Shown here: positions 14,201 through 61,958 of the stretch, piece after piece
Numbering within the stretch: position 1 is the stretch's first letter
How the letters are laid out: the number at the start of each line of letters is the position of its first letter
Source of the DNA: Bacteroidaceae bacterium
GTDB taxonomy: Bacteria; Bacteroidota; Bacteroidia; Bacteroidales; Bacteroidaceae
Direction: 5' to 3'
Assembly (NCBI GenBank): GCA_036303125.1
Contig: JAXJBE010000278.1
Span: 299-64,298 of the forward strand
DNA length: 64,000 nucleotides
Notes under the pieces: model-generated
Database searches by the model: none
What the model was told of the DNA's origin: nothing
What the model saw: the letters and a program-made list of their open reading frames with translations, nothing else
Translations under genes and position numbers: made by a program

Positions 14201-14380
14201 CGGTTATTTAGGTAACGGGACAAAGAATTTAAGTATTTTTCAGTGAATAAGTGCACGTGAAAACGGCAATGCCCAGATAACAAGCATGCGGGATGCTTGC
14301 TTTATGCACAAACATCCCGCATGCAGATAAGAGGTCTTGGCAAAATCAAGACCACGTCAACAGGTCCACCTTTTCATGCC

Positions 14381-14520
14381 AGCGAACTCACATCCCTTGG
14401 CCAGCAAACCCACATCTCTCAGCCAGCAAGCTCAACACCCCTCGGGAGCAAGCTCACAACCCCTCGGGAGCAGGCTCACAAGTAGCTGGGAGCAAGCTCA
14501 CGAGGGGTTGTGAGCAGGCG
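14381..14520. repeat. Degenerate 22-bp tandem repeat, about 6.4 units
   Basis: Units start exactly every 22 bp at 14381, 14403, 14425, 14447, 14469, 14491 and 14513, with consensus AGCAAGCTCACAACCCCTCGGG. Units 4 and 6 form a perfect 14-bp inverted repeat (14453-14466 / 14501-14514), followed by T5. Confidence 0.85.
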
Positions 14521-22728: not shown

Positions 22729-23892
22729 TTATTCCTTCACACCACAAACATTTTTTAGGAATAATTCACTATAAAAATGCTTTAAGTTCATTCTTACGAA
22801 GCTCTGTTCATACCTCGCGGCAATCATTGGCCGTGACTTTGCGCTCATCTTGCTTACTTTTTCAGGATGTGTGACCATGTCCTCCATTGCCTCGTATAGC
22901 GCGCTCTCATCCCTCGGCGGCACTATCACACCATTGACTCCCTCTTCTATGATTTCTCGCGACCCATTGATGTCGGTAACTATGCTGGGAAGTTCCATTG
23001 CCCCAGCCTCAAGAACCACATTTGGGAAACCTTCTCTGTAGCTTGGAAAAACCAGCGCATCGCTCGCTTCATAGTAAGGACGCACGTCTTTCTGACTGCC
23101 CACACTTATGATTGATTCTTCTTTCTCAATCGCCATCCGAGTTTCTGGAAGGACGGGGTCAAGGTCATCTTCCACAGGACCTACGAGCAAGAGGCGTGTG
23201 TCAGGATAGTTCTTGTTCAGACGGGAGAAGGCATTGACAAGTTCGTTGATACCTTTGTCTCTTACGATACGTCCTACAAAGACGAAAGTGAAGGGTTCTT
23301 TCTTTTCCCTCCTTTCGGACAACCATCCTTCTGTTCGCGATCCACCGCTCCTCTTCCAATAATCGAGGTCAACGCCTCTGACATTGCCATACCCCAGCAC
23401 TCGCATGGGCTTGTCAGTGATACAGCTGCTCAAATCATGCTTCACCCCCTCGCCTTCAGGGATAATATGTGTGGCACAAAAACAGGTGATGCGGTCAGTC
23501 AGCATGAGTATCTTGCGCGAGAGGCCTGTCTGCGTAGGCCAAACAAGTCCTGTGAACGTATGCACCCTAATAGGCACATGCGCTATCCAAGCCGCCATCA
23601 TGCAGAGCAGGCCTGCTTTAGGTGTCATCGAATGCACCATAACAGGCCTTTCCTTTCTCATCACTCGTATGAGGCGGATTAGGGATATCAGGTCTTTGAG
23701 AGGCGAGACATGTCTCTCCATTGACACACCGATAGTACGCACCTTCTCACGCCTACCAAGTTCGGCAAGGTCACCATCAGGAGATGAAAGAGCTATGACC
23801 TCGTAGCCCTCATCCTTAAGTTCGCTAAGCAACCCCCGACAGAATATGTTGAGCGACATGCCGATAGTGGCAGCGCGTATTATCTTAACCAC
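22729..23892 (-). CDS. Glycosyltransferase family 4
   Basis: GT-B fold with the C-terminal EGFPNVVLEAGAMELPSIVTD (E-x7-E) motif. Confidence 0.8.
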   Translation of the reverse strand: MVKIIRAATIGMSLNIFCRGLLSELKDEGYEVIALSSPDGDLAELGRREKVRTIGVSMERHVSPLKDLISLIRLIRVMRKERPVMVHSMTPKAGLLCMMAAWIAHVPIRVHTFTGLVWPTQTGLSRKILMLTDRITCFCATHIIPEGEGVKHDLSSCITDKPMRVLGYGNVRGVDLDYWKRSGGSRTEGWLSERREKKEPFTFVFVGRIVRDKGINELVNAFSRLNKNYPDTRLLLVGPVEDDLDPVLPETRMAIEKEESIISVGSQKDVRPYYEASDALVFPSYREGFPNVVLEAGAMELPSIVTDINGSREIIEEGVNGVIVPPRDESALYEAMEDMVTHPEKVSKMSAKSRPMIAARYEQSFVRMNLKHFYSELFLKNVCGVKE

Positions 23893-26383: not shown

Positions 26384-27994
26384 CTAATTTATAACTACCT
26401 TATACTCAAAGTCGTTAATAGTGCCTATCTCTGATAAGAAATTGATGCCGACCATATACACTTTGCGAAAGTCAGAAGCGTAAGGAAGAGCATAGCCCTT
26501 GTCTTCAATCTGCTTAAGTGCGGCCTTGGCTGTTGAGTTGAGCTTAAATTCAAAAATATACACATAGTTAGGGCATTCAAGTACACAGTCTATGCGACCT
26601 TGACTCGTCTCCTTCTCTACGTAAATATTGTACTTGCCCAGCATCTGCATGATGAGATAGAAAGTATAATGGAAATGACGTTCACACTCTCGCTCATCCT
26701 GCTTGCGTTGGAAACGGTAAGATATGCCTGAGAGGAGAGATATGAGTTGAAGTTTGAATTGGTCAAGATTGCCCTCTTCAAGGGAATCTGTAACGTTGCC
26801 TAACCATGTGGTCGGCTCACCCGAACTTCCATTACCGTTGAAATAATCTGAAGCGAGGAGTGATAATGTGCCTATACGAACTTCCTCATTGGGAAAATCA
26901 AGCATATATGTATTGCGTCGCATGTTGCAGTCCTTGATAGTCAAGTAACCACTTTGATACAACATTGGCAACGGTTTCTGCTTTGTAGCCTTATAATCTA
27001 CGAACTCAGAGGTGGAATAATACTTGCCTGCAAGCTCGTTTATAGTCTCATCGCTGTTTGCCATAAGGCGCATGAGACATGTCGGCGTTCCAGTCTTGAA
27101 CCAATAGTCTGTTATCTTTTGCGAGTCAAGAGTGTTTAGGAGACTGAATGGATTAAACACACCTATCATCTTATCACTGAAATGATAACCATCAAACTGA
27201 TGCTTCAACATATCAATCATCTTATACTCGTCCACACCATAAATTGCAGCCAAATTCGACACAGGACGCTTAAAGACATCAAGCAACTCTGCTTCTGTAA
27301 TGCCACATAGGGTATCATATCTGCCGTCAAGACTAATATCCTTAGGCTGATTGAATCCGCTGAACACACTAATTTGAGAGAACTTGGTCACACCTGTCAA
27401 GAATACAAACTGCAGATGCGCATCAGCAAGTTTGAAGACACTATAGAATCCCTTTAGAACCTCCCTGTTATAGTCTTCCAGCGTCTTGATATTTCCTGCC
27501 ACAAATGGTGATGGAATCTCTGTGTCCATCACGTCAAGGAGCGGTTTATCATATTCGTCCACAAGCACTACTGCACGCCGTCCCGTCTTCTCGTGAGCGG
27601 CCTTCAGCACCTTCTTGAAACGCAGACCCAGTTCTGTAGTAGTTGGCACAAGGCCATATTGTCTTTCCCCCTCTTCAACAAAATCCAGAAGAACAGCATC
27701 AAGCGCTCCCTGTCTGGTGAAGTTCGACCCATTGAAATCAAGATGAAATACAGGATATTCCAGCCAGTCCTTCTCCATTTCATCAATAGCGAGTCCACGA
27801 AAAAGTTCCTTATGACCCAAGAAATAATGTTCAAGCGTGGACAGAAGCAAGCTCTTACCAAAACGGCGAGGACGACCGAGGAAGTATATCTTTCCCTCCT
27901 TCACTAAATTATATATCATTGCAGTCTTATCCACATAGACAAAACCTTCTTCAACGATTTGATTAAAACTTTGTATTCCTATCGGATATTTCAT
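26384..27994 (-). CDS. AAA-ATPase-like N-terminal domain plus PD-(D/E)XK nuclease C-terminal domain protein (PF09820/PF08011-type)
   Basis: MKYPIGIQSFNQIVEEGFVYVDKTAMIYNLV...LGRPRRFGKSLLLSTLEHYF, then a C-terminal GRIDCVLE...YIFEFKL nuclease-like core. The reading frame is intact. Confidence 0.75.
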   Translation of the reverse strand: MKYPIGIQSFNQIVEEGFVYVDKTAMIYNLVKEGKIYFLGRPRRFGKSLLLSTLEHYFLGHKELFRGLAIDEMEKDWLEYPVFHLDFNGSNFTRQGALDAVLLDFVEEGERQYGLVPTTTELGLRFKKVLKAAHEKTGRRAVVLVDEYDKPLLDVMDTEIPSPFVAGNIKTLEDYNREVLKGFYSVFKLADAHLQFVFLTGVTKFSQISVFSGFNQPKDISLDGRYDTLCGITEAELLDVFKRPVSNLAAIYGVDEYKMIDMLKHQFDGYHFSDKMIGVFNPFSLLNTLDSQKITDYWFKTGTPTCLMRLMANSDETINELAGKYYSTSEFVDYKATKQKPLPMLYQSGYLTIKDCNMRRNTYMLDFPNEEVRIGTLSLLASDYFNGNGSSGEPTTWLGNVTDSLEEGNLDQFKLQLISLLSGISYRFQRKQDERECERHFHYTFYLIMQMLGKYNIYVEKETSQGRIDCVLECPNYVYIFEFKLNSTAKAALKQIEDKGYALPYASDFRKVYMVGINFLSEIGTINDFEYKVVIN

Positions 27995-30730: not shown

Positions 30731-31260
30731 AACATCTCTTGTCTCTGCTTATTCACCAATACAGTTCCGTCAGGAATCGTCCCTCTAACCACGCACCCAG
30801 CTCCTATAACACAATTGTCTCCAATCTTGGCACCTTTAAGAATGACAGCATTTGAACCAACCCAAACCTTATTACCTATCTCGACAGCACATGTAGTCAA
30901 CTCACAGCTTACCCCTGTCTCTGAGGAATGTTTATGGTTATTATCAAAAATCTTCACACCTGGTCCAAACATACATCCTGCGCCAACCCCTACCCTCTCA
31001 TGCGCACTTATCATACAAAATCTATTGAAATAAGTTCCGTCGCCAATATTAATTACGCCACACCCATGAACCTCAAAGTCACAATAAGCAGCAAATTCAC
31101 AGTTTCTTCCCACCACAATGGATCCCCTTTCAAAAATTTTCAATGCGCACAAAGGGCTAATCCTCTGAATCCAATTTACGCAGTAAGAATCAAGATGAAT
31201 CATCTTGTTCATGGCTGTGCGACATATATTATACATTATTATTAATATTGTACCTATCAT
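30727..31260 (-). CDS. Left-handed beta-helix (hexapeptide) O-acetyltransferase
   Basis: Hexapeptide repeats (IGNKVWVGSNAVILKGAKIGDNCVIGAGCVV). 4-nt ATGA overlap with the upstream gene. Confidence 0.75.
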   Translation of the reverse strand: MIGTILIIMYNICRTAMNKMIHLDSYCVNWIQRISPLCALKIFERGSIVVGRNCEFAAYCDFEVHGCGVINIGDGTYFNRFCMISAHERVGVGAGCMFGPGVKIFDNNHKHSSETGVSCELTTCAVEIGNKVWVGSNAVILKGAKIGDNCVIGAGCVVRGTIPDGTVLVNKQRQEML

Positions 31261-32462
31261 ACTGAAGCCATCTTATAAATTTTTTCTATTTCATTCTCAT
31301 TGCCATAGTCATGTTCTCTCAGATATAATGCAATCCTATCGCGTCTCTCTGTATCCACAATGAACTCCGCCAAACGATCTGCACATTCCTTCACATCCAT
31401 AGGAACAATTATACCGTCCACTCCTGTCTGAACCTGAGATGCTGCAGTTGGATAATCTGTCACAACAACAGGTCTTGCAAGTATCTGAGCTTCCCTTACG
31501 GTTATAGACTTACCCTCATACCTACTTGGTTGTACATATATGTCACAGGACTTGATAAACGGATAAGGATTGTCTTGCTTGCCTAACAAAATCACATCAT
31601 CCGCCACACCTTCCTTCCGAGCATTTGCACGTACCGTTTCTTCAATCTGATTATTACCATAACCGATAATATACCATTTGACCTTCACTCCCCTTTCTCT
31701 CACCAACCTGCATATTTGCGGGATGTCCTCCATTTTTTTGGGGTATGAAAATCGACCTATGGTCAAAAGTTTCACCACATCTTTATCACTGCACAAAAAG
31801 GATGATCCTTCGCCGGCCCTATCTCGTATGAACGAAGAGTTCAGAATATTCTCAATAGGGACAATTTTATCAGCAAGAGTAGGGAATACCCCCACAAACT
31901 TTTTTCCAACCTCTTCACTAATACTTGCAATCCAATCTAACTGCCCCCACACACCCAGTTCTCTTTCGACATCGACATAAACAGTAGAATAATCAGTATG
32001 AATCCACCCCATCTTCCTTTTCGCCCTCACCTTTTTCAACACATAGTTATGAGGTATCAAGAAAGATATCGCCAAATCATACTCTACATCAGGACTGATA
32101 TTGGGCAAAAACGGTTCCACACAATCAGCGATTCTTGCAAATATACGTATATCTTCCTTTCCTTCTGGCACAGGCGATTTCCCCACAGTCCACTTTGCTG
32201 CAATCCTCCCCAAAGCAATTCCCCATTTCCCAGATAAAAGACATTCTGCTATAGGGCGTTCTATCAATCTATAATCTGTCACTTCTGGCAACAAACGTAC
32301 ACAATCTTTTGGAATATACCTCATCAGTTCACCACGATGACTGTATATAAAAACATCCACATCCGCCCTCTCAGGGTCAACGCTCTGCAATAGCCCAAGC
32401 AATGCGCTTTCAGCACCGCCCAACTCCATGTAATGCATCAAAATCAATATTCGCGACTTCAT
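31257..32462 (-). CDS. Glycosyltransferase family 4/1 (GT-B)
   Basis: ILILMHYMELGGAESALLGLL N-terminus and a C-terminal PSRYEGKSITVREAQILARPVVVTD motif. Confidence 0.75.
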   Translation of the reverse strand: MKSRILILMHYMELGGAESALLGLLQSVDPERADVDVFIYSHRGELMRYIPKDCVRLLPEVTDYRLIERPIAECLLSGKWGIALGRIAAKWTVGKSPVPEGKEDIRIFARIADCVEPFLPNISPDVEYDLAISFLIPHNYVLKKVRAKRKMGWIHTDYSTVYVDVERELGVWGQLDWIASISEEVGKKFVGVFPTLADKIVPIENILNSSFIRDRAGEGSSFLCSDKDVVKLLTIGRFSYPKKMEDIPQICRLVRERGVKVKWYIIGYGNNQIEETVRANARKEGVADDVILLGKQDNPYPFIKSCDIYVQPSRYEGKSITVREAQILARPVVVTDYPTAASQVQTGVDGIIVPMDVKECADRLAEFIVDTERRDRIALYLREHDYGNENEIEKIYKMASV

Positions 32463-32478
32463 CTGTAAAGGTCACTTT

Positions 32479-33594
32479 TTAAAATTCTCTTGACGTGTTT
32501 CTATGATTCACTTTTTTCCTTACTCCAAACACATATTTCTCCACTATAGAACTCATCCTCAGCACACGAGAGATAATCAAACTTATAGCTACAACTACAG
32601 ATGCAACCACAAAAGAAAGCAACAGTTCGCCAAACGGATTATCTTCTTTTATGATATTCTTAAAAGGCATACGAAAACCACTATACAAAACAATATAATG
32701 TATAAGGTATATATCCAAAGTTCTTCGCCCAACGTACTGTATAATTTTCCCTACTACAGTATTAGAAGCAAACACATGCTCGTTTCTACGGAAGAATTCA
32801 AAGCACAACGCTATGCCTGTAAATGCAGTTATCAAATGTACAAGCAGACTCGATTTTTCCGAAAGGATGTCGTAAAACATGTTAAAAAACAAGAACACAC
32901 ACATACAAATCACAATCAGAATGTCGTGCTTGTTCATATATTTCCTATAGCATTCATAATACTTTCGCAATCTACTTCCTATTACAAAATAAATAAAATA
33001 AAACCATTGTTGCATGCCTATTGCGATGATTATTTCGTTACTCTTCTCTGATAGCGCCATCAAATGATTTATATAAAAAGAGAAAGCCATTATTGCAAAA
33101 CCAAACATGACAATAAACAAATCCCTTAATGCAGGTCGTATAGCAATGTTTTGCAATATACAATGAATCAGTATATATAGACAATAAAACTCAAACAGCA
33201 TGTAAGTAAACCAATATCCAAAACGAGAATACGAAACAAACGAGGGAATAAAGTTCACACCTTGACAATAGCAATAAAACAAAAGGAAAAGGGTTGGCCC
33301 AAACAATTGAGGCCAAAATTTTTTGCATATAAAAGCCTTTGTATTGTTCCAGGTCCATTTGAAATCAGGCTTATACAGCACAAAGCCACTTACAAAAAAG
33401 AATAAAGGCATCCGGAATTCGGCAAATAGCTCATTTAAAGAGTAACCCTCATAGCCTAAATCGACACTGAAATGACACATTACCACCAATAACATAGTGA
33501 AACCTCGCAAGGCATCAACATACTCAATACGATGACTTGACGATCTGGAGAGGGCATTCAACATTCTTTCCATTTGACTATCCATTATTCTCAT
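32479..33594 (-). CDS. Acyltransferase family 3 (membrane O-acyltransferase)
   Basis: RIEYVDALRGFTMLLVVMCHF, followed by about 10 TM helices. Confidence 0.8.
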   Translation of the reverse strand: MRIMDSQMERMLNALSRSSSHRIEYVDALRGFTMLLVVMCHFSVDLGYEGYSLNELFAEFRMPLFFFVSGFVLYKPDFKWTWNNTKAFICKKFWPQLFGPTLFLLFYCYCQGVNFIPSFVSYSRFGYWFTYMLFEFYCLYILIHCILQNIAIRPALRDLFIVMFGFAIMAFSFYINHLMALSEKSNEIIIAIGMQQWFYFIYFVIGSRLRKYYECYRKYMNKHDILIVICMCVFLFFNMFYDILSEKSSLLVHLITAFTGIALCFEFFRRNEHVFASNTVVGKIIQYVGRRTLDIYLIHYIVLYSGFRMPFKNIIKEDNPFGELLLSFVVASVVVAISLIISRVLRMSSIVEKYVFGVRKKVNHRNTSREF

Positions 33595-33603
33595 TTTTGT
33601 TCG

Positions 33604-33683
33604 CGAAATATTTACGTTATGTCAAAGCAAGCAGAGCCACACTTACCTAAGCTCTGTCATTGCGAGAATGCGCATCTTTAAGA
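33604..33683. repeat. Diverged solo copy of the ~75-nt hairpin repeat seen in tandem at 61781-61927
   Basis: By-eye alignment to unit 1 at 61781-61855: 28 of 35 identical at the right end (GCGAGAATGCGCATCTTTAAGAAC vs GCGAGAAATCGCACTTTTAAGAAC). It shares AGCAGAGCCA in the centre, and the left end is about 65 percent identical. Confidence 0.55.
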
Positions 33684-33811
33684 ACAGTATCACACATCAA
33701 AATAAAGCGAAGATATTATTAAGTGCTATTATGAACACCTGCTTATTACATCTGCTACAACTTGTCCAACACATATACGATGGCTACTCAAACAGTACGG
33801 TCGTCCAGCCT

Positions 33812-35179
33812 TCACTCCTCGCATATCATTTTTGCCATTTCATTGAGAGCCACACACTCCTGCCTGCTTATTATACCTCTACGCTCAGCCCTCGGCATCT
33901 CGCTCGGCACAAGCACCAGCACCTGTCCGTTGACACAGTAGTCATACAATCCACCTGGACACTGCGTATAGTCGCTAAAACCATTGTCAGCCAGCACAAT
34001 CACCGAATGTCCCTCCCTCAGACACACATCCCTCACAGCCGCCTCATGCGGACTAATGAACGGAGACACAAGAGCGCATCCCTTTCTCGCCATCACCACA
34101 CAGCTGTTCTTATACATCCTCTTCTCATCGTCCGTCCATCGGCTCCTCACATGCACTTGATGTCGAGGCAAAGCCAGCAAGGTAAGATTGCCTATCGCAT
34201 CATAACTCCTCCCTGCTATCATTATACCGCGCATCGGTATCAGCCACTGCGGGTGATGCTGTTTCTGCCAGCGATGCATCGGATTTTTATGCACATAGGC
34301 TATCATCGCCTTCAGCTGCCCTTTCCGTCTCAAACGCGTCTCATCAAAATCATCCTCAAAGAGAGCATGTCCGACCTTGATACGCTGAGAAGACAAGGAT
34401 GCAAGCTGCTTTAAGAAAGCATCAATGCCCAACGGAGTACCAGCCACACCAAGCCCATCAGTCCACAAGCACCCAGTCAGACTCATCCTCACCGGCTCAA
34501 CAGCCACCCCACTCATCGCTCTCGCCCTGCCGCCCATGCCTGCATCCGCATGCGTCCCCACACCAACACCCACACCAGCATCTACACGAGCTCTCACTTC
34601 AGGCCTTTCGCAATTCCCTTCACGATTCCCTTCACGATCCCCCTCACGATCCCCCTCACGCGCTCCTCCATGCGCCCTCGCTCCAGCCCCCACTTCAGTC
34701 CCCTCACAAGAGCAGCCCCATGCTGCTCCATTCGGTGTTTCGGGCTTCCCAAGCCCGCCTAACACCGCTCCATTTCCACTACCATACCTCTCCTCACTCA
34801 TCTCCAGCCATCGCCTCAACCTCTTATTACACCCCTGTTTGAATCCCCGTATTATCATCCCCAGCCTATCCTTCATCCTCTGCCTCACAAACAACACAAA
34901 ATGGACATGGTCAGGCATGCACACCGCCGCCAATATCTGCACATCGTTCCCTTTAGCACTCTCATGCGCCGGTATCTCCTGTATAGCCCTCGCCACATCC
35001 AGCCCCAGCGGTGATAGCTCGCACCTTGCCTCAGCACTTGTCTCCCCCACTATTCGTCCCAGCACCTGTTCTCTGTCACTACACACCAATGTGATATGAT
35101 ACACACACCGCTCCCTATAGTCGTGATATGGAAGATGCTTCCTATGAGTTGGCTTAACCAAAACTTCTTTATTTTCCAT
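33812..35179 (-). CDS. HUH / Y1 (IS200-RAYT-like) domain protein, split by a low-complexity insert and carrying an unassigned C-terminal region
   Basis: HUH motif (AAVCMPDHVHFVLFV) and the downstream GHALFEDDFDE...MIAYVHKNP tyrosine-helix motif. The ~170-aa insert is rich in G/A/R/E/V (GAREGDREGDREGNREGN, GVGVGVG). The last ~130 aa match nothing I recognise. Confidence 0.6.
   Translation of the reverse strand: MENKEVLVKPTHRKHLPYHDYRERCVYHITLVCSDREQVLGRIVGETSAEARCELSPLGLDVARAIQEIPAHESAKGNDVQILAAVCMPDHVHFVLFVRQRMKDRLGMIIRGFKQGCNKRLRRWLEMSEERYGSGNGAVLGGLGKPETPNGAAWGCSCEGTEVGAGARAHGGAREGDREGDREGNREGNCERPEVRARVDAGVGVGVGTHADAGMGGRARAMSGVAVEPVRMSLTGCLWTDGLGVAGTPLGIDAFLKQLASLSSQRIKVGHALFEDDFDETRLRRKGQLKAMIAYVHKNPMHRWQKQHHPQWLIPMRGIMIAGRSYDAIGNLTLLALPRHQVHVRSRWTDDEKRMYKNSCVVMARKGCALVSPFISPHEAAVRDVCLREGHSVIVLADNGFSDYTQCPGGLYDYCVNGQVLVLVPSEMPRAERRGIISRQECVALNEMAKMICEE
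34613..34660. repeat. In-frame 12-bp tandem repeat x4 inside the HUH-like gene
   Basis: ATTCCCTTCACG x2 followed by ATCCCCCTCACG x2; on the minus strand this encodes REGD-REGD-REGN-REGN. Confidence 0.9.
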
Positions 35180-35182
35180 ACA

Positions 35183-36364
35183 TCACAGCTTTCCCAACAA
35201 AAACATAACAATGGTGAAAGCGGCATGCCCCAATAAAATCAGTCCTGCTTTCCTGTCTTGATCTTTCCATAAATGCAGTCTAATGACAGCATAAGCCATG
35301 ACAATAGGATAAAGAAACCAACTAAGATATGCGAATCGATTAGAAAAATTAGCACGTATCATCATCACCCAAAAGGAGTTGCAAAGCAAATATGTCGTAG
35401 CAAGAACATTGAACACTCTCAAGCTATTAGCATCAGCTATAACATCTGTTCCTGCAGGATTACCATTCATCGCCGGGACTCCACTTGCATCTACTTTCTT
35501 CTGAACATACCAAATCAACCACACAGGCATAGCGCTATACAGCAAGAAATCCCAACGAAAGCCTGCAGTCGTATATGTTCCTTCTGAATTATCTCCTGAA
35601 GTATATGAATCCATTCGGTCATCAAACCCTAATCCTGCAAAAATTGTAGATATAGAAGTTCCTGCCACAAAAGATACAGGTATACTAATTAGCCAAAAAT
35701 AGATCGCCCATTTAGGACTCTTTATCAAATAGATGGAGGCCAAGCACCCCGCAATAGGCAACAATGTTGACTTATGAGCACCCATTGCCAACAATCCAAG
35801 CAAGGCTGCCAGCCAAAGCTTCTTCCTGTTCTCAGCAACAATAGCCATTGCCAATGTCAGCAGACTACAAGCAAATCCGTTGCGCATGCCATTGACAGCA
35901 TACGTCCATGTAGAAAATGCACTCAGAAAGAACATCATCGCCAAGAACGGACTCTCCCACAGCATCTTGCGGATAGCCCAAAAAACGAAGCCAAGATAGC
36001 CAATCTCTATCACTAAAAACCACAAGTTGACAGAAAAGCCCAATCTTTTACAGTTCTCCTCTATGAGACGCCAGAACCATTCCTTATTGATGTCAAAATG
36101 CACTTCCTTTGGTATACTTGAAAGATTATAGCCATAGGCATAGTTCACAGTATCTCCAAAACGATAGTTCACAGGTCGAAGACCGACAAAAATCATCAGG
36201 GAAACCACCAATATCACTACTGGCACTACTGATTGCTTTTCCAGCAACTTATCACAATTGTCAGAGCTACTATAATTGAAGAATATCAACACACACAATC
36301 CAAAAACCAACCACATGTAAATTGGCTGATACAAAGCAGGCACTATCATTTCATTCATTAACAA
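35183..36364 (-). CDS. EpsG-family membrane protein (Wzy-type polysaccharide polymerase candidate)
   Basis: 393 aa with about 11 TM helices and the general EpsG-like layout. Its stop lies 3 nt before the next start. Confidence 0.6.
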   Translation of the reverse strand: MLMNEMIVPALYQPIYMWLVFGLCVLIFFNYSSSDNCDKLLEKQSVVPVVILVVSLMIFVGLRPVNYRFGDTVNYAYGYNLSSIPKEVHFDINKEWFWRLIEENCKRLGFSVNLWFLVIEIGYLGFVFWAIRKMLWESPFLAMMFFLSAFSTWTYAVNGMRNGFACSLLTLAMAIVAENRKKLWLAALLGLLAMGAHKSTLLPIAGCLASIYLIKSPKWAIYFWLISIPVSFVAGTSISTIFAGLGFDDRMDSYTSGDNSEGTYTTAGFRWDFLLYSAMPVWLIWYVQKKVDASGVPAMNGNPAGTDVIADANSLRVFNVLATTYLLCNSFWVMMIRANFSNRFAYLSWFLYPIVMAYAVIRLHLWKDQDRKAGLILLGHAAFTIVMFLLGKL

Positions 36365-47571: not shown

Positions 47572-48852
47572 CTAATTTAATGATTCTAAACCCAAAAATC
47601 CTTCCCACCTCGCCACTAACGGATGGCCATACTGTTCAAAACCTCCTTCCACATGAACAGTAGCGCATCGCTTTGCCCACAAACAACGATGAACAGAACT
47701 CTGTGAATGTTGATTCACCTCAAACTCCAGCACATAGTCGCCCTTGCTCATGTAACGAGGTAGCTTTATTCGGCGGTGCAGCGAGAAATCGCCAATCGGA
47801 ACATCTTCTGCCACTCCCTTATACGCTCCTTCAGAAAAAGTGGCCATGGGAACCTCACTCATATTGAAGAACTTCAACTGAACATTTGCCTTGAATGGTT
47901 CTGTGGTTGTCCCTTCAAAAAGAATATCAAGGTATTCTTGATTACTCTCGATTGTACTCTCCGTATAAGGAGTTCCATTTATTTCAAGCTTCTTTATCGT
48001 AACATAAGAGGCGAGCTGGTCTATATGATCTGTTATCAGTCCATGCTCAAGATGAGAATTATTCTGCAGATAATAGTTTACAGCATCCTCTGTGCCACCA
48101 TCATAGACCAATGTGCCATTTTGCAATACAACTCCCCTCGTACACAGATTCTTCACAGCTGCCATGTTATGACTAACAAACAAGACGGTTCGGCCTTCCG
48201 AATGCGCCACGTCATTCATCTTTCCTATAGCCTTCTTCTGGAACTCCGCATCACCTACTGTCAGCACCTCATCAACGACAAGTATCTCGGGTTCAAGAAA
48301 GGCTGCGACAGCAAATCCAAGACGGACTGTCATGCCAGAGGAATAACGCTTGACAGGAGTGTCGAGATAACGTTCCACTCCTGCAAAGTCAACAATCTCG
48401 TCCAACTTACGTGTTATCTCCGACTTTGTCATTCCCATTATGGATCCATTCATGTAAATGTTCTCACGACCCGTCATCTCTGGATGGAAACCAGTGCCGA
48501 CCTCAAGGAGTGATGCAATACGGCCGTTGTAGCGGATGGTGCCAGTAGAGGGTGAGGTGATGCGCGACAGGAGCTTCAGGAGGGTAGACTTGCCAGCTCC
48601 ATTCTTGCCGATGATACCAACGACATCGCCCTGCTCCACCTTAAACGATATGTCCTTAAGAGCCCACACATAGTCTGAGTGTCCCTTATGCGCGCGGTCG
48701 TTTGCCTCACCTATCTTAAGATAAGGATCCTCTTTGCGAAGAACATTAACAGCCCACCATCTGTTGAGGTCATGGGACAGCGTGCCTGTGCCAACGCGAC
48801 CAAGTCGGTACTGCTTGCCAACTGAATCAAATTCGATTGCTATTTGTTTCAT
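47572..48852 (-). CDS. wzt: Polysaccharide ABC-transporter ATP-binding protein with a C-terminal extension (Wzt type)
   Basis: Walker A (GKNGAGKST), signature (YSSGMTVRLGF) and Walker B (ILVVDE), then a ~170-aa beta-rich C-terminal domain. Confidence 0.85.
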   Translation of the reverse strand: MKQIAIEFDSVGKQYRLGRVGTGTLSHDLNRWWAVNVLRKEDPYLKIGEANDRAHKGHSDYVWALKDISFKVEQGDVVGIIGKNGAGKSTLLKLLSRITSPSTGTIRYNGRIASLLEVGTGFHPEMTGRENIYMNGSIMGMTKSEITRKLDEIVDFAGVERYLDTPVKRYSSGMTVRLGFAVAAFLEPEILVVDEVLTVGDAEFQKKAIGKMNDVAHSEGRTVLFVSHNMAAVKNLCTRGVVLQNGTLVYDGGTEDAVNYYLQNNSHLEHGLITDHIDQLASYVTIKKLEINGTPYTESTIESNQEYLDILFEGTTTEPFKANVQLKFFNMSEVPMATFSEGAYKGVAEDVPIGDFSLHRRIKLPRYMSKGDYVLEFEVNQHSQSSVHRCLWAKRCATVHVEGGFEQYGHPLVARWEGFLGLESLN

Positions 48853-50604
48853 AAACGATAACGTTTATTGCTGTGAAATTTTGCCTTTTTTGTGAAGATA
48901 CCTTCGCAGGCTCTTGAAGGTATCTTCGCAGGCCAATGAAAGTATCTTCATGAGCCGATGAAGGTACCTTCACATTTTTCATACGTTTTATACCATTATT
49001 TTTTTCTATCTTACAAGTATGGCTCTTAGTTTTCTTGTCATAATTGATTCCAACAAGAATGATGTTGCCTGAGTACTCTGCCAACTTGGAATAATAAGAT
49101 TGGTTCTTAATCTGCGCGATAGCTTTTTCCGCAGAATGTCCACACTTTAATTCCATCAATATAGCAGGTACATCCACATTCTTACGGGGTATAAAGACGA
49201 GATCTGCATAACCTTTGCCTGTTGCATATTCTCGATGGATGATATAATCATCCTGCGCACTGATATATGCCATGGAAAGTACACATGCCAAGGAATTCTC
49301 GTCATTATAAGAGAGAATGCTGACATTCTCATCATGTACTTGCTCTATGCCTTGCGCCACGGCCATCTCGTTGCAGTTAAGTGTGGCATCCAACAAGTCA
49401 TAAGAGTCTGATATCGCCTTAGCCAATCTTGTCCAATTTGTTGATTCAACAGCATTGGTTAGTTCGTCAGCCACTTCTTTATTGGGTATAAAACACCTAC
49501 TCGTATCTTCGTCAAATGCGAGATAGCCAAGGTGAATAAGAACAGTCAATACATCATCCCTGCTTGATATAGCATGTATGTCATTCAGAAATTTTGTCGT
49601 ATTTACACGGACTGACTCTCCCGACAGCATCTTGATGACACTGTCTTTTAATCCATCGAAGTTCATCTGAATATAGGTCTTGACTGAATCATAAGCACCC
49701 GTATTGGACCAGTAACTCTTGCATTTATGACGCTGTATAGCCCTGCTAACTGAGTATGGGTTATAAATGGACTTCACTTTCCCTATTTTATATCCATCGT
49801 ACCATTGTTTCAAACCATCCTTATCAGCGTCATGCTTTGCCGCCAAAAACTCAACCTCTTCTCTTGTAAAGCCGAAGAATGGAGCCAAATCACCAGGATC
49901 CACCATTGAATACTCCTCGAAATTGTTGAGAGCGGACTGAGTATTGTATTTCTTGATAGGAAGGATGCCTGTCATATATACTCCAGCAAATACATCTTTC
50001 GAGTTTTGTGTCTTGAATAGACGACGAAGCAACATCACGTATTCATCCATAACCGTCATATCAGGATAATCTTCAGATATGACATCGCCACACTCACGAC
50101 ATATAGCGTCCCACTCATCTATAATAAGGATGAACTTTTCCCCCGTAGCACAATGAACAGCAAAAAGGACATCCATAAGATCAGCAGAGTCAGCCACGCG
50201 CACGTCCGGATATGCCAAAAGGATCTCTTCACCAATTGCTGTTTGCATGGCACTCACCAACTACCCTTTCACACTCGGATTGGAAGTGAATGTTGTCACG
50301 TCAAGCTTAATAACAGGATACTTGTTCAAATGTTCCTCAAAAGAAGGATCTCTTGCAATCTTAAAAGGAACGAAAAGAGAACGACTGTCACATGACTTAT
50401 CATAATAAGCATACAACATGTCAGCAGCCATAGTCTTCCCGAAACGACGGCAGCGAGTGACACAACTGAGACTACGCTCTGTGCACAAAGTTTTATTGAT
50501 GTATGCTATCAACTCCGTCTTATCAACATAATCGCCGTTGACAGCCTGTCGAAAGCCCGCATTACCTTTATTGATAAATTACCTTTATTGATAAATGTAC
50601 CCAT
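48827..50604 (-). pseudogene. Decayed AAA-ATPase-like / PD-(D/E)XK gene
   Basis: The ATG at 50604 is followed by an exact 17-bp tandem duplication (50562-50578 = 50579-50595), which shifts the frame. Removing one copy restores MGTFINKGNAGFRQAVNGDYVDKTELIAYINK...RRFGKTMAADML. An in-frame TAG at 50263-50261 then interrupts ...NPSVKG*LVSAMQTAIG.... Confidence 0.8.
48893..48980. repeat. 4 x 22-bp tandem repeat, each unit carrying a 12-14-bp palindrome
   Basis: Units start at 48893, 48915, 48937 and 48959, with cores TGAAGATACCTTC, TGAAGGTATCTTC, TGAAAGTATCTTCA and TGAAGGTACCTTCA; the last is a perfect 14-bp palindrome. The nearest unit lies 41 bp upstream of the wzt ATG. Confidence 0.9.
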
Positions 50605-51498: not shown

Positions 51499-51695
51499 AA
51501 ACTGGTAATAGCTGGAATAGTTTGGATAGCAGGGATAGCCATTATAGCCGGGATAGTATTGATAGCTGAAATAACTATTATAGCTGGAATAGCAGAGATA
51601 GAAAAAATAGAGGCAATAGAAAGAATAGCAGAAATAGGCTATGCAGGATGTGCGCTATTGATGCTATTGTGCTATTATTGCTATTAAGCTATTTC
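51499..51695. repeat. 9-bp-periodic ATAG/CTAT palindromic array R1
   Basis: ATAG (one ATAA) recurs every exactly 9 bp at 15 consecutive registers, 51508-51634. The core CTATGCAGGATGT follows, then 5 CTAT units of opposite polarity (51655-51689). Confidence 0.9.
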
Positions 51696-52261: not shown

Positions 52262-52430
52262 TTTTTTAATAGTTTGAATAGCTAAAATAGATGGTATAGC
52301 TACAATTAACAAGATGCTGAGATAGATAAGATAGCTTTGATAGCTGGAATAGACTATGCAGGGTGTTGGCTATTAAAGCTATAATGGCTATCACCGCTAT
52401 TCAAACCATCACCGCTATTCAAGCTATGAC
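52262..52430. repeat. 9-bp-periodic ATAG/CTAT palindromic array R2
   Basis: ATAG registers run 52269-52349 (one slip of 1 nt). The core CTATGCAGGGTGT starts at 52354, followed by CTAT every 9 bp at 52370-52424. Same orientation and architecture as R1. Confidence 0.9.
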
Positions 52431-61720: not shown

Positions 61721-61780
61721 TTCCGAAAAAAGCGACAGACTCTATAAGAGAATGCCGCTTAGATTTGATTCGTGTAATGG

Positions 61781-61927
61781 AACGATTTCGTTAAGCCAAA
61801 TGAGCAGAGCCAAGCTCGCTTGAGCTATGCCATGGCGAGAAATCGCACTTTTAAGAACGATTTCGTTAAGCCAAAAGACCAGAGAAAGCTTGTTTACTCT
61901 GGCTTGGCGAGAAATCGCACTTTTAAG
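61781..61927. repeat. Two tandem copies (75 and 72 nt) of a hairpin repeat
   Basis: Both units start AACGATTTCGTTAAGCCAAA and end GGCGAGAAATCGCACTTTTAAG. The arms pair (CGATTTCG...GCCAA with TTGGC...GAAATCG), while the apical sequences differ but each folds on itself. Confidence 0.85.
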
Positions 61928-61958
61928 AATCGGCAGGAGCGATGACTCGCTGAGGCAA

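Follow-up and report, generated by a model that had tools for sequence, protein, structure and literature searches.

Introduction

Y1 HUH enzymes are known as the transposases of the IS200/IS605 insertion sequences (IS) and as the RAYTs associated with repetitive extragenic palindromic (REP) sequences. Other domesticated Y1 forms have been catalogued, to our knowledge without an assigned function. Here, we describe a gene for a Y1-type protein (hereafter, the HUH gene) that lies in a polysaccharide locus of a Bacteroidaceae bacterium (NCBI GenBank assembly GCA_036303125.1), on a stretch of 64,000 nucleotides (nt) of contig JAXJBE010000278.1 (positions 299 to 64,298 of the forward strand), which we call the window and whose numbering we use throughout. 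The gene (33812-35179, minus strand) is a complete open reading frame (ORF) of 455 amino acids (aa), in which the ORF list, Pfam, NCBIfam, an AlphaFold2 (AF2) model and Foldseek together indicate a Y1-HUH core, a disordered insert and a DprA-like domain.

The published classification of TnpA-Y1 proteins distinguishes 12 subclasses, with a Y---Q motif in class 1 and a Y---NP motif in the RAYT-like class 2 (Quentin et al., 2018; PMC6006769). Within it, subclasses 2.1 and 2.3 (TIRYT-like) combine a Y1 core that carries insertions with a large conserved C-terminal domain and have no REPs, and subclasses 2.2 and 2.6 carry short inserts between helix alphaC and strand beta4, beside the hairpin-recognition region (PMC6006769). 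As for the fold at the other end of our protein, ShosA and DprA have been shown experimentally to bind single-stranded DNA (ssDNA; PMC11961720), and DprA loads RecA on ssDNA according to work cited in that paper.

Results

The catalytic core and its insert

The N-terminal part of the Y1 core (residues 9-139; 34763-35155, minus strand), delimited by Pfam, conservation, AF2 and Foldseek, follows the order beta1-alphaA-beta2-beta3(HUH)-alphaC and contains the HUH motif MPDHVHFVLFV, in which H91 and H93 are read from the sequence at 34909-34907 and 34903-34901. The second part (residues 249-305; 34265-34435, minus strand), placed by invariant residues and AF2, consists of strand beta4 (ALFEDDFDETRL) followed by the Tyr helix AYVHKNP (motif YVHKNP), with Y295 at 34297-34295. 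An earlier note on this DNA had recognized both motifs on either side of low-complexity sequence; both are indeed present, and, intact as they are, they appear to place the protein in the Y1 HUH endonuclease superfamily. The Pfam model Y1_Tnp (PF01797), which that note had proposed as a check, matched above its gathering threshold (25.3 bits versus a cutoff of 23), with residues 24-126 aligned to profile positions 4-85 of 121 and the rest of the profile displaced by the insert. The best NCBIfam match, REP_Tyr_transpos (NF047646), aligned in two stretches and scored 42.6 bits, under its cutoff of 80. The partial coverage by Y1_Tnp and the two-stretch match to REP_Tyr_transpos show that the catalytic domain is genuinely split by the insert.

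Structure-based comparison gave a similar picture. A model computed from 20 close homologues had a predicted local distance difference test (pLDDT) score of 44.6; we therefore used the AF2 model built on a diverse alignment of 42 sequences, in which pLDDT exceeded 90 in residues 20-135 and 250-455. When the N-terminal core was compared with the Protein Data Bank (PDB) by Foldseek, it matched ISDra2, IS608 and Sulfolobus TnpA (E ~3e-4 to 4e-3) and, at E 6e-2, TnpA_REP (4er8). A sequence profile of the full family, searched against the PDB, retrieved ISDra2 TnpA at 3.6e-6 and TnpA_REP 4er8 at 2e-3.

The insert (residues 140-248, ~110 aa; 34436-34762, minus strand) is a G/A/R/E/V low-complexity sequence in the alphaC-beta4 loop, recognized by its tandem repeats and its pLDDT below 50, which predicts disorder. 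Helix alphaC (residues 106-132) precedes it and strand beta4 (residues 279-282) follows; within it are two tandem arrays with a 12-nt period (34557-34591 and 34616-34660), and it is missing from the compact relatives in the 42-member alignment. Its GC content of 0.62 is due to codon positions 1 and 2 and thus stems from its amino-acid content. The ratio of nonsynonymous to synonymous substitution rates (dN/dS, omega) is 0.55-0.8 in the insert versus 0.08-0.2 in the folded parts.

The distance from the HUH motif to the Tyr helix has, over the whole family, a median of 82 residues and exceeds 100 in one third of the representatives, suggesting that the alphaC-beta4 loop has expanded repeatedly. 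Among relatives of the Prevotella/Segatella copri type, this spacing climbs by exact 13-residue steps (155, 168, 181 ... 246), which points to a 39-bp coding variable-number tandem repeat (VNTR). The S. copri-type linker (homologues P0019-P0120; for example L001, 8001-9491) is built of the 13-aa (39-bp) repeat GEMRGVRAEDGRx in ~0 to >9 copies depending on the strain, making the VNTR a potential strain-typing marker. In the lineage of the window the repeat period is 12 nt, and the copy number varies among strains that are 90-96% identical.

The C-terminal module

The final ~130 aa had seemed unrecognizable from the sequence, and no Pfam model recognizes this part of the protein. Foldseek and a profile built from the C-terminus alone nevertheless identified residues 306-455 (33815-34264, minus strand) as a DprA-like (SLOG-superfamily) Rossmann module that is shortened in comparison to DprA. 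In the Foldseek search of the PDB, the C-terminus matched ShosA (8zva) at E 3e-5, followed by DprA of Helicobacter pylori (4ljk; 8e-4), Streptococcus pneumoniae (3uqz; 3e-3) and Rhodopseudomonas palustris (3maj; 4e-3), each with a probability of 1.00. By sequence, four DprA proteins were the sole non-transposase matches of the full-family profile in the PDB (E ~0.2), and they moved to ranks 1-4 (E 0.013-0.058) when the C-terminus-only profile of 54 sequences was used. These alignments, which span ~130-190 columns, pass through the invariant GN..LL, beta1, the next helix and the VS strand. We conclude that the C-terminal module is best described as a DprA-like Rossmann domain and not as a DprA orthologue. 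A sugar-modifying enzyme, the other identity that had been considered for this part, was rejected, as no such family matched in Pfam, NCBIfam, the PDB sequence search or Foldseek.

Relation to described systems

Judged by its Y---NP motif, the core would belong to class 2 (RAYT-like) of the TnpA-Y1 classification. With RAYT/TnpA_REP of E. coli (4er8) it shares the HUH and Y---NP motifs, the N-terminal HDY...Y.IT pattern, the nature of a single-copy chromosomal gene that is not an IS, and low-level matches in sequence and structure; it differs in having no flanking REP or REPIN and in its NCBIfam score, which stays under the cutoff. The IS200/IS605 transposases (ISDra2, 2xm3; IS608, 2vjv) are the best-scoring relatives of the core and have the same fold order and catalytic residues, whereas our protein has Y---NP in place of Y---Q and is 2-3 times longer, and its gene is single-copy, with neither subterminal hairpin ends nor tnpB. 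The insert occupies the same alphaC:beta4 position as the short inserts of subclasses 2.2 and 2.6. The layout also recalls subclasses 2.1 and 2.3, but these have Bac_DnaA_C/helix-turn-helix (HTH) tails (2.1) or subclass-specific tails (2.3), the motifs NHVH/NHYH and YIELNP/YVDLNP, and a distribution in Proteobacteria (PMC6006769). In general, the tails of the 12 published subclasses are of the HTH/DnaA_C type or short and subclass-specific, none being a 150-aa DprA-like tail, and Table 1 of PMC6006769 has no subclass with the motif combination of our family, DH[VIFL]H / [WF]E / YVxDNP. The family thus appears to be an unnamed subclass of Y1 HUH enzymes, outside those 12.

The module shares with DprA/Smf and ShosA (8zva) the Rossmann core and the order GN..LL - beta1 - helix - beta2 (VS) - helix - beta3 (G..I.L..G). 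Unlike DprA/Smf, it has no sterile alpha motif (SAM) or winged-helix domain, lacks the last third of the Rossmann domain and a Pfam DNA_processg_A match, carries SPFISxxE in place of GxAxGID, and is fused to a nuclease. The ShosTA defence system differs as well: the HUH gene has no ShosT phosphoribosyltransferase (PRTase) partner and no PADLOC match, and its neighbours are glycan genes. In the literature that we searched, there was no paper on a combination of HUH and DprA-like domains and nothing relevant on transposases in P. copri capsule loci, in keeping with the earlier note, which had regarded the arrangement as undescribed.

Conservation and selection across the family

A whole-protein search returned >600 relatives, and a search with the C-terminal 153 residues returned 718 representative clusters at 50% identity. 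Most members have ~310-350 aa (normally ~320 aa), with the C-terminal module at about residues 170-320, and the N-terminal halves of these compact relatives match Y1_Tnp contiguously over profile positions 40-120. The normal architecture is therefore a compact Y1 core directly joined to the C-terminal module, of which the protein in the window is a linker-expanded version. Pfam scans of the longer members revealed no alternative domains, and no name for any member was present in the sources searched.

In an alignment of 42 diverse members, down to ~28% identity, M88, H91, H93, Y295, N299 and P300 are invariant in the core, as are G330, E379, G418, L421 and N446 in the C-terminal module. Among 96 full-length representatives, P[DNE]HxH is kept in 86 and Yxxx[NQ]P in 92. 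Interspecies comparison with nine homologues gave the omega of 0.08-0.2 for the folded parts mentioned above, values that are approximate because dS is near saturation. The conserved catalytic motifs together with the low omega in the folded parts indicate a working gene under purifying selection and argue against a decaying transposase.

Each species genome has the HUH gene at one locus (15 genomes), and no second copy is present in the 64,000-nt window. Searches of plasmids and phages with the family gave no matches, PADLOC had none for five family members, PHROGs gave no informative match, and a viral Foldseek search returned nothing significant. In the loci sampled, the family is found mostly or only in Bacteroidales-type genomes; the search for related loci reaches Prevotella-type genomes only.

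Two sequences from these searches stand apart. The protein P0142 (L028, 321-1931) joins an OB domain of the RecD2/YrrC type (OB_YrrC) and a helix-hairpin-helix (HhH) to a Tyr helix and DprA-like module, without an HUH motif; this is the sole alternative fusion that we encountered, and we set it aside since it is possibly chimeric and, with a contig coverage of 1.6x, may be an assembly artefact. The closest species-representative match, L009 (CAAFXG010000038.1), has 74-88% identity and is set in a glycosyltransferase context; it bears the label 'Lachnospiraceae bacterium', although all other matches are Bacteroidales, and is probably a mis-binned contig.

Probable co-transcription and the mosaic glycan locus

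Upstream of the HUH gene lies an EpsG/Wzy-like gene (35183-36364, minus strand; assigned by Pfam), in whose place strains L029 and L032 have acyltransferase genes. The ATG of the HUH gene stands 3 nt past the TGA stop of epsG, on the same strand, and in strains L032 and L033 to L035 its start and stop codons each share 1-4 nt with the adjoining gene. These junctions suggest that the HUH gene is probably co-transcribed with the polysaccharide genes, and the overlaps support translational coupling as well; the coordinates, the 3-nt spacing and the probable co-transcription given in the earlier note are thus borne out. The next gene downstream in strains that lack the acyltransferase cassette described below, and one that overlaps the HUH gene there, encodes a GT1 glycosyltransferase (31257-32462, minus strand, in the window).

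Among strains whose HUH proteins are at least 90% identical, we found at least three arrangements: GT2-EpsG-HUH-[repeat]-AcylT3-GT1 in the window, L030 and L031; GT2-EpsG-HUH-GT1 in L033 to L035; and AcylT3(-AcylT3)-HUH-GT1-CapsSynth-EpsG in L029 and L032. When the window was compared with the conspecific strains L029 and L032, the ORF (35161-33816) was 94.5% identical while the DNA directly upstream was non-homologous, GT1 was 65% identical except for its first 147 nt, and the downstream flank, from 29973 to the end of the locus at 23142/24142, was 97.7% identical. With respect to conspecific strains, the block of high identity runs from 35161 to ~150 nt into GT1, the acyltransferase cassette excepted, and since it ends near the ends of the ORF there is little room for transposon ends. 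The HUH gene thus forms a conserved island in a mosaic glycan locus, and the limits of this island nearly coincide with the ends of the gene. There are no IS ends at the gene in comparison with the conspecific strains and no tnpB among the ORFs of the window, in agreement with what had been noted from the sequence.

The same gene order, EpsG-HUH-GT1 on one strand of a large glycan locus, recurs in relatives at 55-60% amino-acid identity. In other Prevotella-type species, the neighbours of the HUH gene are instead genes for pectinesterase, BspA leucine-rich repeat (LRR) proteins, primase, SMC/PHP proteins, enoyl-CoA hydratase, radical-SAM enzymes or dockerin proteins, and distant family members adjoin alaS/MerR, TonB/efflux or giant fn3 genes. 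These unrelated neighbours indicate that the family is not confined to capsule loci and lacks a conserved partner gene, so that a constant residence in capsule loci, which a synteny check might have revealed, was not found; it appears limited to one clade, of the Prevotella/Segatella copri type.

The glycan locus of the window has other features of note. Two genes of the PDDEXK_9 nuclease family lie inside it (48827-50248 and 26384-27994), of which one separates the genes for an ABC-2 permease and an ABC ATPase and the other has AAA-ATPase_like in addition; in strain L033, a GT2 gene takes the place of the second of them. These appear to be further non-glycan, nucleic-acid-type passengers of the locus. 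In the upstream part of the polysaccharide cluster, two arrays of a 9-nt period, GATAGCnnn (51507-51592 and 52268-52419), stand in inverted orientation with 42-nt arms that are 83% complementary, and flank an 829-bp segment with a 187-aa ORF (no Pfam match). An intergenic 22-nt tandem array of five copies is located at 14378-14519 and itself gives rise to a 29-nt imperfect palindrome (14452-14515).

Base composition

The HUH gene, with a GC content of 0.534, is richer in GC than the adjacent glycan genes (0.35-0.42), from which a separate origin had been proposed. The difference itself is real; the origin drawn from it did not hold. Without the linker, the gene has a GC of 0.508 and a GC at third codon positions (GC3) of 0.566, and the ordinary genes found between 0.7 and 17 kb of the window (those for LPG synthase, M20 peptidase, GH106, TPR and OmpA proteins) range from 0.46 to 0.53 in GC and from 0.51 to 0.65 in GC3, which argues that the HUH gene is not compositionally foreign. 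The glycosyltransferase block at ~26-47 kb (GC 0.35-0.42, GC3 0.34-0.45) contains the compositional outliers of the window. Moreover, the HUH gene exceeds its flanks by 5-7 points of GC in every Prevotella-type homologue, whatever the context, suggesting a stable property of the gene and no sign of recent transfer.

The 75-nt repeat and the acyltransferase cassette

A 75-nt unit occurs twice in tandem in an intergenic region (61780-61929), where it folds as DNA with z ~ -2.7, and a degenerate copy, identified by nhmmer and alignment, lies at 33609-33684 (plus strand), 128 nt downstream of the HUH-gene stop. The predicted folding of the degenerate copy is no stronger than that of shuffled sequence (z = +0.7 and 0.0). 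It sits in an AT-rich cassette (32451-33815, minus strand; GC 0.346) composed of a spacer and an Acyl_transf_3 gene (32479-33594), which we delimited by the Pfam match and by collinearity with L033: the two sequences run together up to 33816 and again from 32450, leaving a 1,365-bp (1.37-kb) insertion in the window, placed precisely between the end of the HUH ORF and the beginning of GT1. The cassette is present in the window, L030 and L031 and absent from L033 to L035, L029 and L032; in L029 and L032, a 70%-identical acyltransferase is encoded upstream of the HUH gene.

With nhmmer, the repeat was found in none of the other related loci that were fetched besides the cassette-bearing L030 and L031, and since only strains with the cassette have it, the copy at 33609-33684 seems to belong to the cassette and not to the HUH gene. 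A degenerate pattern search in loci L001-L006 found no 75-nt repeat, Rfam at gathering thresholds gave nothing in the window, the 75-nt unit included, and the 250-nt flanks of 17 homologues contain no shared hairpin or element. Of the proposal that a hairpin repeat in the 3' flank forms a REP/RAYT pair with the gene, then, the presence of the copy stood, but the copy is degenerate, unfolded, cassette-borne and absent from cassette-free loci. Its position at the 5' end of a strain-specific cassette raises the possibility that the 75-nt element marks or accompanies cassette insertions.

Discussion

We consider it probable, at roughly 0.6, that the gene encodes a domesticated, non-mobile RAYT-like (Y---NP) Y1 HUH ssDNA nuclease/ligase whose Tyr helix continues without a break into a DprA-type Rossmann domain of reduced length. 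That the protein is active as an enzyme, that its C-terminal module binds ssDNA and what role it might have in the cell are what we infer. The DprA-like module would bind ssDNA, and possibly RecA or a partner, and would present the ssDNA to the HUH/Tyr site, which would cut it via a 5'-phosphotyrosine intermediate and could rejoin it. In the Prevotella/Segatella copri-type lineage, the alphaC-beta4 loop would have grown into a coding tandem repeat that is disordered and differs in length, and the gene would have become a fixed, co-transcribed resident of the polysaccharide locus between glycosyltransferase cassettes that strains exchange. From its flanks and its conservation, it looks like a long-resident gene of this mosaic locus and not like a recent mobile insertion.

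Several observations weigh against the proposed domesticated nuclease. By sequence alone the link to DprA is marginal (E 0.013), Pfam DNA_processg_A (PF02481) did not match the isolated C-terminus or six stand-alone relatives even at E = 10, and the C-terminal third of the DprA Rossmann domain is missing; for these reasons, the ligand of the module could, as with other SLOG domains, be a nucleotide and not ssDNA. The neighbourhoods outside the copri-type clade are mutually unrelated, so that context gives no functional clue, and no candidate DNA target, hairpin or repeat, lies in the 250-nt flanks of the 17 homologues. As for the glycan locus, the role of the gene there may be incidental, with the conserved passenger serving as a passive crossover anchor.

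Two alternatives would keep the gene closer to its mobile relatives. That it is one half of a REP/RAYT-type pair, whose protein mobilises or maintains the 75-nt hairpin family, would fit its RAYT-like Y---NP and HDY...Y.IT patterns, REP_Tyr_transpos as best NCBIfam match, the repeat copy 128 nt past the stop and the hairpin folding of the intact copies at 61780-61929 (z = -2.7). We regard such a pair as very unlikely, as REP_Tyr_transpos scores only 42.6 against a cutoff of 80, the 5' side has no repeat (the gap to epsG is 3 nt), and the flank copy, degenerate and unfolded, is part of the 1,365-bp cassette that is missing from L033 to L035, L029 and L032, strains in which GT1 adjoins the HUH gene or overlaps with it; among the related loci, nhmmer detects the repeat in L030 and L031 alone. 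It is conceivable that the protein acts on these repeats from afar. Still less credible, in our view barely so, is a foreign or mobile gene, an IS200-like remnant, that recently landed in the capsule locus. Its transposase-family fold, its GC of 0.53 beside adjacent genes at 0.35-0.42 and the other genomic sites occupied in more distant Prevotella-type species could be read this way. Yet the linker-free GC of 0.51 and GC3 of 0.57 are within the ranges of ordinary genes (0.46-0.53 and 0.51-0.65), the glycan genes being the outliers, and the 5-7 point GC excess recurs in all Prevotella-type relatives; the gene fills the same slot in species at 55-60% amino-acid identity with saturated dS, and it is single-copy, under strong purifying selection and devoid of ends and of tnpB.

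Other alternatives accept a domesticated enzyme and differ in what it does. The enzyme might initiate recombination that diversifies the locus, by nicking ssDNA in or near the glycan locus while the DprA-like domain promotes RecA-dependent exchange of cassettes. Such an activity would explain why a conserved gene is found between variable blocks: with L029 and L032 the ORF shares 94.5% identity, next to non-homologous upstream DNA and a 65%-identical GT1, the breakpoints fall ~18 nt inside the ORF start and ~150 nt into GT1, and at least three cassette arrangements surround HUH genes that are at least 90% identical. Co-transcription with the locus and the loading of RecA on ssDNA by DprA, as cited in PMC11961720, would suit it too. 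A conserved gene in a variable locus can however act as a passive crossover anchor for which no enzymatic role is needed, no hairpins or motifs are found at the breakpoints, the family lives in unrelated contexts in most other lineages, and the two PDDEXK_9 genes suggest that such loci simply tolerate passengers; we therefore hold this role to be unlikely.

Equally, the SLOG-type module might be a sensor of a nucleotide or other ligand, as in ThsA and LOG proteins, that would act as a gate for the HUH nuclease, for instance when the cell responds to stress or conflict. The superfamily does have ligand-binding members (the SLOG of ThsA), the top structural match, ShosA, comes from a defence system, and E379 of SPFISxxE is invariant in the 42-member alignment, at what we take to be the position of the DprA GID or LOG GGxGTxxE motif. 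This too we judge improbable, given that the nearest neighbours in structure and sequence are the DNA-binding DprA and ShosA and not LOG or ThsA, that five family members had no PADLOC match, and that neither a defence-island context nor a partner toxin is seen.

Returning to the domesticated nuclease, its subclass would link an enzyme that cuts and joins ssDNA to a fold that bacteria use for ssDNA binding and RecA loading, and the family, with 718 clusters at 50% identity that have the tail, offers a concrete, testable entry to the function of domesticated Y1 enzymes. In the Prevotella/Segatella copri-type group, which is dominant in the human gut, the HUH gene alone stays constant at the centre of the locus, and this constancy amid a mosaic bears on how surface-glycan diversity arises or is exchanged. 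A more far-reaching conjecture, and an unlikely one, is that the HUH-DprA-like protein is a dedicated generator of diversity in surface-glycan loci. Co-transcribed with the locus, it would nick the displaced or lagging strand there, and the recruitment of RecA by its DprA-like domain would promote the swapping of the glycosyltransferase cassettes that border the HUH gene on both sides. If this were true, a domesticated transposase would serve as a programmed initiator of recombination for capsule variation in a dominant lineage of the human gut.

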